Origin: Raja brachyura
Taxonomy: Eukaryota
Direction of reading: 5' to 3'
NCBI GenBank assembly: GCA_963514005.1
Contig: OY740784.1
Coordinates: 73,904,001-73,968,000, forward strand
Length of the DNA stretch: 64,000 nt
The translations under genes were made by a program, and so were the position numbers. How positions within the stretch are numbered: the first letter of the stretch is position 1; each line of letters begins with the position of its first letter. Below the pieces are notes generated by a model. The model was given only the letters and a program-made list of their open reading frames with translations. It made no database searches and was not told where the DNA came from. Below are positions 5,155 through 64,000 of this stretch, piece after piece.

Positions 5155-5802
5155 ATTCATTGCTACTCTCCCTCAGGTTTGGTCTCGCAATTTCTCACTT
5201 CCAACTCTCACCCAATGTTGGCAGCCCTGGGCAACTGGGAGATAGTTACTAAGGTCCTTCACACTCAAGATTATTTCTCTACTTCCTTCTTTTCTTGCTT
5301 ATCATGCTTATCATGTTTTTGGCTGATCAGTTACTATTTTCTGGTGTGTTTTTGTCAAATGTGGTTAATTTTCTAGGGAAGTGCATGTTACTATGTTCTG
5401 TTGTGCTGCAACAAACAAGAATGCTATTGTCCCATCTGGGACACATGACAATAAACTCTCTTGACTTGAAGTGCCTGGAGTGTTGTTCTATTTTAAAGTT
5501 GCTCTCTAGCATAGTTATTATCAAGCTTATAATTGTAAAAGAGTACTGTTCTGTGGGGACACATTATTTACTGGGATAAATGCCAGGGGGCGGAAGAAGA
5601 GAACAGTTTATTTCTCTTTTACTATATGATAATTTGTAATTGCAGATTTCCACCAATAAGTTGTACACTTTTACATTCATTCAAGTCTAGTTAGTTTTAT
5701 TAAATTGTTTTAACTCTGCACTCCTGAGCTCTTACCTTTATGTTCTTTCGTAGCTTGTGGTGATGCTGAATCTGTTGATGATTGGCGCCAGGCCCTTGCA
5801 GG

Positions 5803-6027
5803 ATGAGCAAATTGCCGACTGGCCCGGAAAATGCTGGAGTCAATTCCTTTGGTCACAGTGCCTCCATCAGTACTATGCAATCCATCACCGCAGCCCAAGT
5901 TGCAGCTAGGTTAGACTCGTATAAACCAATTGGTAAAAGAAATATTTCTGATGTCAGGAGGACTTTCTGTTTATTTGTTACGTTTGATCTACTATTTGTT
6001 GGTTTGTTGTGGATAATCGAATTGAAT
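5803..6027 (+). CDS. STARD3NL: STARD3NL (MENTHO) coding exon 1
   Basis: MSKLP...ISDVRRTFCLFVTFDLLFVGLLWIIELN, the MENTAL domain start. Acceptor TTTCGTAG ends at 5753, ATG at 5803, donor GTAAGT at 6028. 225 coding nt. Confidence 0.95.
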
Positions 6028-7173
6028 GTAAGTACTAAACTTTTTATTGATTTGCATTCTGATGAACGGGTTTTAATAATTCTGTTGTTTATTGAAACGA
6101 CCTTGTGGATATAATTGTGGGGTTAAGTAACAGCTGAGAGAAGGAGTCGGTAGGAGGCTTGGCTTGTGGCGAAAGCATAGAGGGCAGGATCTCACCAAAA
6201 ATGGATGGAGAGTAGTTATACACAAGCTTTCCTTCGGAACAGATGGGATCAAGGCCTACAGTTTCTGGTTATGTTTTATGCCTTTGTCAGGAATGCTCAT
6301 TTTATATTTCATATGTCAGCAATGATTTGGTCAGAAAGTTTCTTATTGCAAAATCAGATATTACAATCAGGTCATGTTTTTATTCATCTAATGACGGTAA
6401 CTTTTTTGGGAAGTCACAGTAAACTATAGATAACTTCTGTATTTATAAGCTTTGTGTTGATATTTCTCCCCCTGTTCCCTTTTCTATCCTGGTTCCGCAC
6501 CATTAGCATCCTTGCTCTTTGTCGAGAAAGAGTTGTAAACCAAATTATGTGCAAATTCTTCTGCTGGTCTGTGCCTGACGACTTTAGCAGTTTTATCTCT
6601 TTTTCTCCTGACAGTAAATTCTGTTTTCCCTATTATTTTCAGCCAGCAACTTTATTTCAGTAGTTAGTTGACCAGAATTGCACAACATGATTTTTTGTGG
6701 ATCTGATTTATTTTATTTTGTAATATTCTGGGAACCTTTGCTTTCAATTTTGCAGTTGAGCCGATCTCCTACTTTCATTTTTTTTAACTGGGTGGCACAG
6801 TGACGCAGTGGTAGACTTGCCGCGTAACCGCGCCAGAGACCCAAGTTCAATCCTATGACTGTGAGTTTTCCCCGTGGTGCGAAACTATATGGGGGGGGGG
6901 GGGGGGGGGGGGAGGAGGACCTCAATAAGCCAATCACAAATAAAGATCATATCATACATTTATTGACAGTCCCTAACCCAGTCACAAAGTACCCCATTAC
7001 ATAGTTTCCACAGAAGACAGTTCACCAAAGTAAAGAAACATTTCCCAGGTAATATAAACAATTTGAACAAGGCTCATACATTGACCAATCATAAGATAAC
7101 AGCACAAACACTCTGCAGCATAATTAACAATGCTTTACAACACCCCAATCTATAACCAATCCATTTGCAACCC

Positions 7174-46643: not shown

Positions 46644-46777
46644 TTACAATGGCTTCTTCGTGCCCCAGTATTCCATCTTGTAAAGTATGCACGAGATGAT
46701 ACCGCAGTACAACACACTCTTCATCAACAGAATGGTATATGTCAATGTCGCGACTTGCAGTGAGCTCACTGGTATTC
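46644..46777 (-). CDS. TRGC: TCR gamma constant exon 3 (transmembrane + cytoplasmic)
   Basis: cacctag|(G)IPVSSLQVATLTYTILLMKSVLYCGIISCILYKMEYWGTKKPL*. It carries the TCR beta/gamma-type TM motif Y-xx-LL-x-KS-xx-Y with the CD3-pairing Lys. Confidence 0.93.
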
Positions 46778-48355
46778 CTAGGTGGAATTGGAAAATGCAA
46801 AAATCGTTAGCTTCCGGTTTATTAGCAGAAATTACGATTCTAAGTATTTACAGATATATTTTGCTGTTTTTCGAAGCGATGGCGTGTATAACGCCACTAT
46901 AAAAATAAGATTAGCGAACGTTTGGGCAAATGTCTCCAACAATGTCAACTTCCCATGATCAGTGGCTCAATTCGGCATATTTTCTATTCAGGATGGATGT
47001 AATGTTGAAATGAATGTAATGTTTACCTGCTTTGCTGGTACAAGCGAAATTAGTGTCACCATACATATTCAATGATGGTGTTGAGTTTTCTAAATATGGA
47101 CGTATTATATACAGCAAATAAACGGGAAAATCTACCCAACTAATTCATGCTCGTGTTCGTGTTGTTTTTTTTAATTACAATTTCGTGGACGTCTTAAAAT
47201 AGAAATGTCCTTTAATGATACATGTCTACATGTATGTAATGGTTTGCCTGCCATCCTTTCCCCAACTTTTAACATGCGCAGGTATAATCCACGTGAGCCA
47301 ACAGACTCACAATTCATTACTTAATAACTTATTTCTTAAACGTGTTTATTTTCTTATGTGATTTAATCTCATGTTATATCAACCCATTTACATCTTTGTA
47401 AGTACGTGGGTAAAACGATATTAAAAATATTGTACTACTTTGATGTTTTATTGGGTGAGTGTATGAAGATGTGCCCCTTATGGTACTTCGTATTTCACTG
47501 TACTTTAATTGGTACATGTGACAATAAATTGACCTTGAAACGTTGAAGATGTGCCCCTTAATGACAGTGATCGACGGGGTTATGGTGGGGAAAGAATGGT
47601 TTGTTTCTGTGACCCAATGACTACACCTACAGTGTCTTGGTAGCTTCGGTCGTTCTTATGTGTTTGCAAACTTCTTTATTTCTTTTACATTTCTCGTTAA
47701 CTTAATTTTGGCGTTTCTAATTGCCTTTTCAACTAACCCTCTCTCCATATTTGCTAATCTATTTCTATTCCTTTTCATCGTCCTCACTCTTGTTCGTGCA
47801 CCGAATATAACGATTTCCTTCAGTTTTCATTTTCTTCAATTCTTCAACTGGATAGTTTGATCGTGCATTTAAATTGTGTATCTTTCTGTGTTGACCGTGA
47901 CTTCAACTGTGTTACATTGCGGTGTCCTTTGTAATAAAATTTATATTTTAAAATGTCAAAATACATTCCAGTTTATTTGTGTCCGTTCCATTCTAATTCT
48001 GATTTTCTGAGCAACCTGTTACAATAAGCAGGTCTATCTTTCATTTCTTTCCACAAATGGATATTGCTGGATACCTATCTAAGCCGCTTCAAATGACAGT
48101 GGGGGTCAGCCGATTGTACCTTAGTTGGTACATGTGACATAAACGCTTGTCCTCATTGTCACCTTGCTCTTTCTAAGGACATTACATGAACCGCCCCGTC
48201 CTGTGACAAGGTAAAGATTGCGTTGATTATTTCCCTGTGCTGATAATTGGCAGATTTATTGAGCTATAGTATCACCATTTGAGAGGCTACGATATTTGAC
48301 CCGGCTAGGAGCCGAATAATACCCGGACCATCGTTTGATTTAGAACAGGAATTAC

Positions 48356-48433
48356 CTTCTTCCGTGTTCTCCTGTAATTCCTGGACACTCGGCGGGCAGG
48401 TGGGACCTCCAGGATTACCAGCATTGGGAACCT
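48356..48433 (-). CDS. TRGC: TCR gamma constant exon 2 (connecting peptide)
   Basis: ctttag|(E)VPNAGNPGGPTCPPSVQELQENTEE+G|gtaatt; 78 nt, phase 1-1, with a single interchain Cys. Confidence 0.85.
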
Positions 48434-49929: not shown

Positions 49930-50250
49930 CGTATTTTGAATCCTTTGTAATCTTTAATCCTGGGACGTCGATTTCATGTTTCGCGTGGCAAGTAATGGGT
50001 TGATCTCGCCATTGCAGCTTGCTGACACTGAGTCGGCTAATCAGCGAATAAGTATTTCCTTTCTCCATTTTCGTCACCGAATCCGTCTCAACGTTATCGT
50101 TCTGCACCACGTCACCGATTTTCCACTCGACCTTTATCACCTCGGGGAAGAAGTCGGTCATCAGGCAGACCACAACGGATTTGCTAGTGGCGCGCAGCTC
50201 ATCGCTCGACGGCGGGAAAAGACGGATTTTCGGAGCCTTGGGCGTTTCAT
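49930..50250 (-). CDS. TRGC: TCR gamma constant exon 1 (Ig C1 domain)
   Basis: aatcag|(D)ETPKAPKIRLFPPS...VVVCLMTDFFPEVIKVEW...YSLISRLSV...ITCHAKHE...KY+G|gtactg; 321 nt, phase 1-1. It has the C1-set Cys-Trp-Cys and lies next to STARD3NL as TRG does. Confidence 0.95.
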
Positions 50251-52361: not shown

Positions 52362-53843
52362 AACGAACGTCGACAGTGGTTATGTTTGAAGCTGGTGTTA
52401 AATCGTTCGGGTGTGATCTCTACAACAGATGTTGGATCTGAAAACCTGCGGAAGACCACCGCCGCCAAAAAGCTGAACTACACCTCGCTATCCCGGCCAC
52501 TTAGCACCAACACGTAGCGTGCCCTTCCAACGACAGGGCCGTTATCAAAAACACAGCCTCGTGCAACTCAGCGGCCAGAAATACTATCCAACCAGCAGCT
52601 ACACAACCAGCTTTTGCAGATATTCTGAATCAATAAACTACAGATAACTATAACCACCTGTTAACTGAAAACAGTTAACTTTTTAATTCGAAGAAGCATC
52701 CTCAATTTGTAACATTAACCCTGTTTCTCTTTCCACAGTAACTGTTTGACATTCTGAATGCTACTGAGTTTTCTATTTTTAATTTCCTGCATCGTATTTT
52801 TAATGTTTGTGGCGGAGATGATCGCGGGCCACTCTCGTTAACCTCTTCTCGAGCAGAGTCTGATGAAGGGTCCCGACCCGAAGCGTCACCTATTCCTTTT
52901 CTTCAGAGATGCTACCTGACCCGCTGAGTTACTCCAACACTTTGTGTCTATCTTTTCCAGCAAACCTGGCTTCGTACAAGATTCACAATAAATGACGGGG
53001 ACACGCCGCAGGGATGCATCTCTCAGTGGCACCGAATATACAACATCACCGGCCTCTCATGAAAGGAGCCGTGTGTTATAAATGTAAGCGAGAGGCACGC
53101 TACTGAATGGGCAATAGACAATAGGTACAGGCGTAGTCCTTTCGGCCCTTCGAGCTAGCACCGCCATTCACTGTGATCACGACTGATCATCCACAATCAG
53201 TACCCAGTTCCTGCCTTCTCCCGATAGCCCTCGACTCCGCTATCTTTAAGAGATCTATTAAACTCTCTATTGAAAGCATCCAGAGAATTTGCCTCCACTG
53301 CCTTCTGAGGCGAATTTCACAGATTCGCAACTCTCTGGGTGAAAACGTGCTTCCTCATCTCCGTTCTAAATGGCCTACCCCTTAGTCCACTTGACTGGTC
53401 AGAGTCGTGTACTCCCTCGGAGTTTGGTAGATGTATAAGGTATCTATTTTTTTTCTATCCCTTTCGCACCGCCAAATTTCCAGCGAGGAGATTAAAATTG
53501 ATGGAGGTAAAATTGGTGTCAGTCAGTCTGGACCATGCCCCCGAGTCCCTTCCCGCCCCAAATCATTGCTTCAATATAGCACCCGGGAACCGATTTACAA
53601 GTCTGCGGACGGGAGCACGGAGTTTTTTCTTTGGAAAGCTAGCACCCAACCCATTGCTGCAAGCCCTCCCGCACTCTTTGTTCTTCATGCCCTCCCCCCC
53701 CCCCCCCCCCCCACGTACCCTCTGCTGCCAACCCCCCCCCCCCCCCCCCCCCCCCAACCCTCTCCCACCCTCCTTCCAACCTTTCCCTACAGTTCGCGAA
53801 GAGTTGCTACCCCTGCTCCTGGATGCCCCCACTCCAGACGTAC

Positions 53844-53900
53844 CTGTGACGATGAGCCGAGTCCCGCCGCCGAATATTTTTCTCCATGTACCAGATGTGG
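53844..53900 (-). CDS. TRGJ: TCR gamma J segment (C-proximal): TSGTWRKIFGGGTRLIVT
   Basis: FGxG motif, phase-1 donor ACAG|GTACGT, and an adjacent 12-RSS. Confidence 0.95.
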
Positions 53901-53928
53901 CACGGTGTTCAGTGCATGTACAATAACC
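53901..53928. promoter_or_regulatory. 12-spacer recombination signal sequence
   Basis: On +: CACGGTG, 12 nt, ACAATAACC. Confidence 0.93.
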
Positions 53929-54055: not shown

Positions 54056-54112
54056 CTGTGACGAAGAGTTTGGTTCCAGTGCCAAATATCTTGATATATG
54101 CATTACTGGTCG
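54056..54112 (-). CDS. TRGJ: TCR gamma J segment (middle): TSNAYIKIFGTGTKLFVT
   Basis: YIKIFGxGTKL is typical of Jgamma. Donor ACAG|GTGAGT. Confidence 0.95.
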
Positions 54113-54140
54113 CACGGTGTTACACCGTCTGTCAAGAACA
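54113..54140. promoter_or_regulatory. 12-spacer RSS with divergent nonamer
   Basis: On +: CACGGTG, 12 nt, TCAAGAACA. Confidence 0.85.
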
Positions 54141-55205: not shown

Positions 55206-55762
55206 TGTCTTATTGTCTTGGTCGTGGTATGAAAGAGCTTAGAGCAGTACCTTATGCCCTCCGTGTCTACACAATCCACCGAGCACTCCTTTATTCTAAA
55301 TCCCACATCAATCCCATTTGTTCGACTCACATTCCCACCAATTCCCCCCAGATTCTCTCATTCATCTCACAGTCGGAGCAATTTCTGCAGTGGCCTATTA
55401 CCCAACCAACCCGCACGTCTTTGGGGTGTGGGAGAAAAGCGGAGCGCCCATCAGAAATCACGCGGTCATAGGGAGAACGTGACAACTCCACACAGTCAGC
55501 AGTGGAGGTCGGGTTTATTAAACTGGTCCATTGGAATATGGAGGCAGCAGCTCTATAACCTTACATAAAACTCCACGCAACCATTATTTGAAGGAGCAGC
55601 AATGGGCGTCTCCTACAAATCTCCTATCAATATCTATCCCTGAAACACGTGACAAAGAAAGAATGAATGGTCCTCACCATGATCCAGGCTGCAGTTTCTA
55701 CATCACAAGTGCTTAGGAAAATGTTCAAGAGAGGATCGGGATGCAGGTTGAATCACGTGTAC

Positions 55763-55821
55763 TTGTTACAACCAGTTTGGTTCCAAATCCGAAACAATAT
55801 TGTTTCCCATCGCTCGCACAC
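55763..55821 (-). CDS. TRGJ: TCR gamma J segment (V-proximal), atypical: CASDGKQYCFGFGTKLVVT
   Basis: FGxGTKLVVT motif, phase-1 donor ACAA|GTACAC, and a correctly spaced RSS-like element. Confidence 0.8.
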
Positions 55822-55849
55822 CACAACATTAAATCAGCTCATAATAACT
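55822..55849. promoter_or_regulatory. Non-canonical 12-spacer RSS
   Basis: On +: CACAACA, 12 nt, ATAATAACT. The essential CAC is retained. Confidence 0.7.
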
Positions 55850-58454
55850 GATTGCTCATTGTTTAACCTCACAATCTCACATCCCCAGAATATCACATTG
55901 AATGGCAGTGCTGGCTCGAATGGCATACTCCTGCACTTATTGTCTATTGTCTATTGTCTATTGTCTATTGTCTATAGCGGAAATGACCTAGGACCTGATA
56001 CAATAATTCAAGAATGTACTGATTGTCCAAGCAGAGAGTCAGAAAAGTCTGTCAGACTATCACACCTATGCCAGTTCCAATTCAGTTCAGTTCAGTTTAG
56101 TTTATTGTCATGTGTTCTGAGGTACAGTGAAACGTTTATGTTATGTGCTATCCAGCCAGTAAAAAGACAATACATGATTACAATCGAGCCATATAGTGTA
56201 CACAGCATTTACAATGTATTACAATGCCTTTACAATGCAGTTCAAGGGAATAACGTTTAGTGCAAGGTAAGGCCAGCAAAGTCCAATCAAGGAATGCCCG
56301 AGGGGCACCAAAGAGGTACAGAGTAGTTCAGCACTACTCTCTGGTTGTGGTAGGATGATTCATTTGCCTGATAACAGCTGGCAAGAAATTGTCCCTGAAT
56401 CTGGGGATGTGCGTTTTCACACTTCCATATATTTTGCCTGATGGAAGAAGGGAGAAGGGAGAAGAGGCCAGGGTGTGACTCATCCTTGATTATGCTGCTG
56501 GCCTTGCTGAGGCAGCGCGAGGTATAAATGGAGTCAATATATGGGAGGTTGGTTTATGTGTTGCCCTGGGCTACGTCCACAATTCACTGCAATTTATTGT
56601 GGTCTTGGATGGAACATTCCTTCGAAGAGGCGTCCAATTAAATTTTCTAATTCCAATTAAGAGGCATCCAATTACATTTTCTAATTCAAATTAAGAAGCT
56701 TCCACCATTGACTGTATACCCAAAGGTTCAGTTGCATTGAGTGCATAATATGCACTGTATGCCAATATGGGAAGCCACGTTGAGGCAGGACGATGAGCAG
56801 ACGTGGGACTGATTTTAATGTATTGTAACCAGATAATCATTGAATGGCTGCCATTTAGTCCATTTGTTAAATCACACCCAATTATTCCCATTCCCAGTTC
56901 TGTCGATGCCTTGCCAATTATCTCCCTTGAATGGCTACCACGACACCTTACTTATTTTTGAGCTCTACCCATTTGGTCACGTGGATGTGCCTTTCGTTAT
57001 ATTGTCCCTGGGTACCACTGTTGCATACTCTCTGATTAGAAAGGCAATTCCTCCACCTCTTATACCTTCCTCTCAATCATGTCTAAAACATTGAAACTCC
57101 AGAACGTTGAGCAGTTAGTCCTATATCTCTCGTAACCAAGTGTCCAAGTGGCCACAACTTCATAGTCCCATGCACTGATCCCGGCTCTATGTTCATTTGC
57201 TCCACCTATAATAAGCCTTTATTGAAGTAACCAAGGTGTGCCCATCGGTTTCACTATGTTTACTTGTGGGTCCTGAAGACATTACCATGGACTAATGCTT
57301 AATAAGGAAGGTGAGTTGGTATTTTTTGAAATTCTGCATTCTTCTGCCTTTTTATTGCGTTCCTAATGGAGACCATTCACCCTACTAAGTCCACGCCAGC
57401 TACCTGCAAAGCAATCCCATCCATTCCATTCTCCTTCTCCTTATTCCCCTGTAAATGCAATTATTCTCTATCAAATACCCTAAATGACCCAATTTTGTTG
57501 ATTTTGCCATATAATGCATACAAATAGCCAATTAGCTTACCAGTGTGTCTTCGGGATGTACAGGGAAACCAGACCACACGGGAAACACATTTGGACAACA
57601 TGCAAGTAACCAAGGTCAGAATCAGGCCCAGGCACCTGGAGCCCTGATGCAGTACTGCTCACTACTGTGCCACCTCTCTTTACAGTTTCCCTCAATTCAC
57701 TCGATCACTTTCCCTCTTCTGCTGCCAAACGTGCTGTTCTATTTGGCACAAAGAGCTCAGTGACATCCTGGGAGCTCTGCGAATATACTTGAAGTGCCTT
57801 ATTTGACCTCCTGGTAGTCTCTTGCCCTGGTTGAGTCTGGAGCAGAATGTCTGGCATGCAGGGAGATCTGGGTTTCCTAGAACATGATTCACAAATGGTG
57901 TACAGCAAATAATAAGGAAAATTAACAATGTTTTGTTTTACTACAGATGCATAGAGTGGTTAGATTGACTTATGGGGGAATGATTGCATAGGCTTGACTT
58001 GCATCTGCTGGAGCTTAGATGATTGAAACTTGTAAGATCTTCGAGGGTGAAAGCAGAGAGGTTGTTCCCTCTTATGGGAGAATCTAGTGCCATGGGTCAG
58101 TGTTTATTAAGAAATGTCACTCAGTTAAGAAGAGGTAAGGTATATTTTTTCTCTCCCAGATGGATTTGTGCGTCCTTGCAACTTTCTTCCTGAGAGAGTG
58201 TATTTTTAAGACAGAGGTAGATAGACACCCGATCAAAACATTTCTCCTCATCTCAGTCCTGAATTACTTATATCAAATACTGACACTATGACTCCCAGTT
58301 CCAGAATCTCTCAGCGAGTGGAAATATTCTCACTGAATCCAGCATATTGAGCCCTGGTAGATTTTTGTATATTTCAATGAGATATCTAATTTTACTGATT
58401 TTGAGAGAATACAAACTAATCAACCAAATCTCTTTTAATACAACAGTACCATCA

Positions 58455-63903: not shown

Positions 63904-63942
63904 GGTTTTTGTAAGCGACGCCGGTTGCTGTTTAACTCTGTG
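63904..63942. promoter_or_regulatory. 23-spacer RSS of the V segment
   Basis: On +: GGTTTTTGT, 23 nt, CTCTGTG. On -: CACAGAG, 23 nt, ACAAAAACC (consensus nonamer). Confidence 0.95.
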
Positions 63943-64000
63943 TATCCCAATATGCACAAAAGTAGGTGGCGGAGTCTTCTGTCTTGAGTTTGTGCACCGT
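63943..64000 (-). CDS. TRGV: 3' end of the J-proximal TCR gamma V segment (continues beyond the window)
   Basis: TVHKLKTEDSATYFCAYWD, a D-x-A-x-Y-x-C plus the Vgamma-typical CAxWD, directly abutting the 23-RSS. Confidence 0.93.

Follow-up and report, generated by a model that had tools for sequence, protein, structure and literature searches.

The window, i.e. the whole stretch of 64,000 nucleotides that was analysed (G000:C4:73904001-73968000), holds the 3' part of a cartilaginous fish TCRγ locus. A survey of V, J and C segments that took in a further 112 kb of adjacent DNA showed the locus to consist of 7 V, 3 J and 1 C, on the minus strand. The seven Vγ end in CAYW, CAHW, CASW or CACW, each with a 23-RSS, and the relatives of the Cγ include nurse shark TCRγ cDNAs; a protein search with the C exon in its longer mode gave 0 of 60 candidates. 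Downstream of Cγ lies an exon resembling that of STARD3NL, the gene that flanks TRG in other vertebrates. The features of the locus are as follows (window positions, except for the last).

5782-6111, plus strand: MENTAL-domain exon, STARD3NL-like
46647-46778, minus strand: Cγ transmembrane/cytoplasmic exon (approximate, tblastn)
48342-48422, minus strand: Cγ connecting-peptide exon (approximate, tblastn)
49930-50250, minus strand: Cγ exon 1, C1-set domain
53844-53928, minus strand: J3 with 12-RSS (coding part 53844-53900, SGTWRKIFGGG)
54056-54140, minus strand: J2 with 12-RSS (coding part 54056-54112, SNAYIKIFGTG)
55763-55821, minus strand: J1 coding segment, open frame (G + CASDGKQYCFGFGTKLVVT + A)
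63904-64000, minus strand: 3' end of the J-proximal Vγ (…YFCAYWD) with 23-RSS; the other six Vγ lie outside the window
G000:C4:74011620-74011950 (L006), minus strand: Vγ outside the window, at a distance of 44 kb; it ends in YYCACWM (Cys106) and its 23-RSS is good

The Cγ domain of a relative (P0154 / P0103) carries a tandem duplication of seven residues (VETDSVAK repeat), which is absent in the present Cγ.

The V-proximal J (J1) translates in an open frame as CASDGKQYC-FGFGTKLVVT. The features for which the sequence-only reading had singled it out, viz. a C-x7-C arrangement before the FGxG motif of a TCRγ J, are all present, and J2 and J3 are, as it had also stated, of the usual xxKIFGxG type. 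The elements of J1, all on the minus strand, are:

55751-55756: alternative in-frame donor, GTGATT after AC, which would add Ser-Thr
55757-55762: donor at the normal J position, GTACAC after AA (last coding base 55763)
55782-55793: FGFG, followed by TKLVVT
55794-55796: Cys2 codon, directly before the J-Phe (IMGT 117)
55817-55823: site B, second heptamer-like word CACACCA, in the usual phase 2
55818-55820: Cys1 codon, inside the second heptamer-like word
55822-55828: site A, RSS heptamer CACAACA, the sole heptamer with a nonamer at 12 nt
55829-55840: RSS spacer, 12 nt
55841-55849: RSS nonamer ATAATAACT (read from the coding end), sharing 7/9 positions with that of J3

Both donors lie inside a 6-nt near-repeat (ACAAGT/ACACGT; 55751-55768), perhaps a second small duplication.

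The signals of J1 were compared with those of Js from the TCRα/δ J region (contig C15), for which 101 of 108 candidates, all on C15, were kept; the rest, namely the three γ Js and four non-J matches of low score in the γ region, were left out. Because the filter asked for a GT at the donor and an RSS of fair score, decayed Js are under-sampled in this set, and about 45 of the 101 stem from a single recent expansion (41 distinct RSS, 17 distinct donors). These near-identical tandem TCRα Js (G000:C15:1163800-1199500) vary in their CDR3 codons, and nonamer AGTTATTGA and heptamer TACTGTG recur nearly throughout the array. Two short Js on another contig (G000:C32:20062686-20062711, minus, and 20092101-20092126, plus) have heptamer/nonamer-like signals spaced by 23 nt and stand in opposite orientation, as light-chain-like clusters. 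When scored with a profile from the TCRα/δ Js, the RSS of J1 reaches 9.8-10.9 bits, which is attained by 8-18 of 5082 background GTG sites. J1, which is single-copy in the genome by DNA search, is placed between a V with 23-RSS (63904-63942) and the C1-set exon, in the V-J-C arrangement without D that marks a TRG J segment. Based on this score and this placement, it is clear that J1 is a real J and not a chance occurrence.

The sequence-only reading had regarded the heptamer, nonamer and donor of J1 as all weak, and had proposed a scoring of the RSS. The score obtained lies below the 5th percentile of the controls, but it exceeds that of 99.6% of the background, and the three signals fare differently. 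The nonamer is close to AGTTATTGA, which is used by 41 of the 101 control Js. The heptamer is less weak than claimed. SARP-seq (PMC9723617) used mammalian core RAG in cells, with heptamer positions 4-7 and 2 spacer bases randomised, and in the ranked sheet of its supplement the J1 9-mer CACAACATT stands at row 172 (4096 variants being possible) with 0.136% of the products, as compared to 0.925% for CACGGTGTT of J2 and J3; CACAGCATT, a heptamer type present in 7 control Js, lies below it at 0.098%. The assay employed another nonamer than that of J1, and what is active there is the heptamer with its two adjoining bases. These figures make the use of J1 by RAG plausible and argue against the idea that all of its signals are poor; its RSS is weak yet probably usable, with about one-seventh of the efficiency of the J2/J3 heptamer. 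The claim of a weak donor holds for the normal position, where GTACAC (-4.8/0.3 bits) falls below all 101 control donors (minimum 0.7/5.7), and the minor use of J1 that had been anticipated is probable. However, a better donor 6 nt downstream (1.9/6.7 bits, near the lower limit of the control donors) shares its phase and could rescue the splicing of J1; with either donor the frame into C is kept.

With respect to the two cysteines, the 101 TCRα/δ Js, whose 99 distinct peptides comprise 842 codons, have no Cys in FR4 or ahead of it, as compared to 2 among 9 codons in J1. Elasmobranch TCRγ proteins give the same result: among 27 records from 12 species, a J motif is present in 26 from 11 species (22 gene models and 4 nurse shark cDNA translations, which do not make up each species' whole J set), and Cys at 117, whose conservation across related species would be expected of a VNAR-type cysteine, occurs in 0 of these 26. 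The earlier statement that such Cys are not typical of Jγ is thus borne out, and the comparison of orthologous Js which it had proposed is answered in part, since the Cys are absent in the 26 records, but near relatives and full germline J sets lie outside their range. The records fall into three classes, viz. WRKIF (J3-like), AY(V/I)KIF (J2-like) and non-KIF, the last with Gln or His before the Phe (6 of 26 records, including two nurse shark cDNAs). The non-KIF (shark xLQF) class is the most plausible one for J1, an assignment made by exclusion and by FR4 and protein likeness, with the DNA of relatives and locus position forming no part of its basis. Phe at the x of FGxG, as in J1, is seen in 0 of the 101 control Js. 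A search of the own genome for the pattern Cys-FGxGT(K/R)(L/F) gave 5 matches versus 4 in a reversed control, with J-like flanks on inspection only at J1, and a metagenome scan with a J1 20-mer gave 0 matches.

The first of these cysteines can be related to the RSS itself. The RSS is in phase 2 in 96 of the 101 control Js, and also in J2 and J3, similar to the 134 of 137 zebrafish Jα given in PMC10322711, and in 92 of the 101 controls the heptamer itself reads Cys (TGT) in the J frame. In J1, site A is in phase 1, and its heptamer is repeated 5 nt downstream with 6 of 7 bases identical, a repeat found in 0 of the 101 controls. The repeat, site B, gives a common length (23 nt, as in 13 of 101 controls) and is followed by CG AGC (cf. 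CG ACC in J2); Cys1 is the TGT of site B. The 5' end of J1 is 5 nt longer than in the xLQF / SLHF class, of which the manta model reads HR-DNDNSLHF; here heptamer-like codons stand in phase 2 and position 117 is a His. As Cys1 occupies the usual position of the in-frame heptamer TGT, and the 5-nt repeat is absent in the controls, it is likely a remnant of a duplicated heptamer. Site B as a working RSS is ruled out, a nonamer being absent at 11-13 nt (-17.3/-8.1 bits versus 10.9/9.8 for site A), and its 9-mer was not among the SARP-seq supplement rows searched, possibly a partial file (PMC9723617). The Cys1 codon lies, as noted earlier, 1 nt from the predicted cut and is retained only if trimming does not exceed 1 nt; hence, its loss in many joints is likely.

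C exon 1 was found in 7 sequencing runs, none of which is recorded as RNA, and the contigs of 4 were compared; two of these (X1 and X3) are taken as transcript-derived only because the exon match is followed by other letters. The own-species contig X3 (depth 151) matches C exon 1 exactly, without differences, and then continues for 49 further letters; the depth over the J3 bin corresponds to about 54 letters of this contig, and J3 is its main path. The donor of J3, GTACGT (53838-53843), is non-consensus and weaker than that of J2. The bin of J1 (55758-55950) is filled by a repeat, and contigs drop rare forms. Further, J2 is uncovered in both X1 and X3, and J3 in X1, though both segments look intact, and the lack of cover therefore says nothing on function. 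Contig X1 ends 9 letters beyond the exon border, the length shared by the 3' ends of J2 and J3, which is no more than a weak hint. The check for rearranged transcripts that had been called for thus led from C to J3 at the contig level, with the J1 bin masked by the repeat, and by these contigs the use of J1 is neither shown nor excluded. A DNA contig of a related organism (X7) spans 55416-55917 with 6 differences in 502 bases and without a gap, from which it follows that the layout of J1 is not an assembly indel. Its divergence of 1.2% over the J1 region falls within the intron background of 1.1-2.4% and thus indicates a shared layout rather than selection; at this divergence chance alone would leave both Cys codons untouched in 93% of cases, the 6 differences being a count for the stretch as a whole.

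The sequence-only reading had suggested that the two Cys would fall within CDR3 and could either close a disulfide loop, reminiscent of IgNAR, or pair with a Cys of the V region. In favour of the loop, both codons are in frame and are present in untrimmed joints, and the Cys of ultralong chicken CDR3γ have been linked to loop disulfides by the suggestion of the authors (PMC8456604). However, Cys1 survives only minimal trimming and resembles a heptamer copy in position, phase and sequence, its position (110) would not be a neighbour of 117 in the hairpin, and Cys2 is located at the base of the CDR3 and not at the loop apex. The untrimmed J1 CDR3 has 14 residues by IMGT, or 11 by the GXG rule, which is above the mean of 9.1 (range 6-12) given for nurse shark γ (PMC5278385). 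The Cys are also absent in the likely orthologous J of nurse, zebra, epaulette and sevengill sharks and of the manta, and a fixed partner of the VNAR type was not found in FR2, CDR1 or FR4, as the FR4 of J1 is without Cys and none of the Vγ has one in CDR1 or FR2, unlike VNAR types I-III (PMC4622739). A selected C-x7-C loop is thus very improbable. Positions 106 and 117 of a V domain face each other across the F-G hairpin, and a bond between V and J is therefore a better candidate than this loop. Cys106 (CACWM) is present in one of the seven Vγ, and J1 without trimming continues the frame of 4 of the 7 V ends, the CACW V included. An extra FR3 Cys (KSCTL) occurs in another Vγ (G000:C4:73973280-73973600, minus), and a smooth-hound V has KLCTL similarly placed. 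J1 could then be a selected specialist, whose Cys117 (with or without Cys1) bonds Cys106 of the CACW Vγ, or a Cys of the δ chain, and stabilises the CDR3 in a γδ subset; a framework-4 Cys pairs with CDR3 in type I VNAR (PMC4622739). However, CACW is also present in two carpet shark models with Gln or Ile at position 117 of the Js on record, which shows that Cys106 needs no J partner, and a J-encoded Cys117 partner for a V Cys106 was found in none of the elasmobranch records compared. With Cys106 absent in six of the seven V, a weak donor and no transcript seen in the contig data, a specialist role for J1 is unlikely. We would also give little credence to the view that J1 and the CACW Vγ are germline partners matched to each other, which define an innate-like γδ subset. 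In this view, joints with little trimming would give a γ chain whose Cys106 and Cys117 (with Cys110 if untrimmed) staple the CDR3 base or bond the δ chain, the extra Cys having arisen by capture of a part of the RSS heptamer into the coding end. A PDB sequence search was of no use for the geometry, as the best 60 of its 4154 matches are antibody chains.

The reading that we moderately favour is that J1 is a genuine old third Jγ (non-KIF, xLQF-type), which is now minor and drifting, and that its Cys are lineage-specific by-products and not a selected disulfide. It is likewise somewhat probable that one Cys derives from the heptamer and the other arose by substitution, the pair being real and unusual but probably incidental. 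The off-phase RSS, the decayed donor, Phe at the x of FGxG and the absence of the Cys in the relatives' records all speak for drift. On the other side, the frame is intact, and silent differences in FR4 outnumber replacement codons versus J2 and J3 (4:2 and 5:3), which points to constraint on J1, in the past at least. Further, two Cys in nine codons are a lot for drift alone, whether or not one is explained, the RSS is workable, and the untrimmed segment fits more than half of the V ends in frame. A possible, if doubtful, alternative is that J1 is a pseudo-J or ORF, which may rearrange, but in which bad splicing or an unpaired Cys blocks the surface receptor and the Cys are neutral decay. The donor, the RSS phase and the Phe mentioned above would all suit it, as would Cys117 and the intron-level divergence of J1, which gives no visible constraint in a test that is powerless at such a distance. 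However, J1 is without a stop or frameshift, its heptamer is usable and an in-frame rescue donor lies within the control range. If J1 is instead an old but drifting Jγ, a 5-nt duplication of the heptamer would have left the nonamer at 12 nt from the outer copy and shifted the cut outwards. RAG would then cut at site A about one-seventh as efficiently as at the J2/J3 heptamer, and the TGT of the inner copy would be left as the first J1 codon and usually be lost by end trimming. Splicing would likely proceed via the donor 6 nt downstream, in frame and with Ser-Thr added, and the resulting chain, rare as it is, would have a single Cys, at 117 in the CDR3 base and likely unpaired. Such a lone Cys would likely be better tolerated by γδ than by MHC-restricted αβ cells.

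MHC-restricted αβ repertoires are purged of free cysteines in CDR3 (PMC6399321), and a Jγ that keeps a Cys provides a small natural test of the exemption of γδ receptors from this purge. On present evidence J1 is an oddity whose use is likely minor, and it illustrates how RSS slippage can make a coding codon of signal DNA. If the V106-J117 bond is real, a TCR would have a disulfide between V and J that is encoded in the germline, and no description of such a bond was found in the literature searched. The same literature, including the accessible parts of PMC8656973, PMC2275272, PMC6795676 and PMC6857471, holds no description of this J, which may be in print in the primary shark TRG papers, these being outside its scope. 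The motifs YCFGFG, QYCFG and CFGFGTK gave no literature match, and the J sequence was not found in the searchable PMC5931798 supplements, nor in 11 of the 19 supplement files of PMC10322711.

Among known systems, the type I/II VNAR of IgNAR belong, like J1, to an antigen receptor of cartilaginous fish and have an additional Cys within CDR3 or adjoining it, but in VNAR the partner Cys is fixed in FR2/FR4 or CDR1 and is matched by the CDR3 Cys (PMC4622739), whereas the Vγ of this locus offer no CDR1 or FR2 Cys and the disulfide in the J1 chain is putative. Several mouse Vβ families encode in the germline a CDR3 Cys that lies outside the FG loop (PMC6399321). The Cys106 of CACW-type TCRγ, present in one V here and in the two shark models, is V-encoded, unlike Cys117 of J1. 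Stray-Cys J alleles are found in mammals, viz. human TRAJ35, IGKJ2 alleles and rabbit b9 Jκ, and these are usable segments. They share with J1 a germline Cys codon in a J, but in other loci and positions and not at 117 of TCRγ. The xLQF / SLHF segments of TRGJ (nurse shark ADW95913 and ADW95914, and the zebra, epaulette, sevengill and manta models) are, like J1, non-KIF and form a third class next to a J2 and J3 of the same KIF type, with an FR4 reading GT(K/R)L(V/I)VT; however, they have Gln or His at 117, Thr or Ser at the x of FGxG and no J Cys, whereas J1 has Cys117 and Phe at x.
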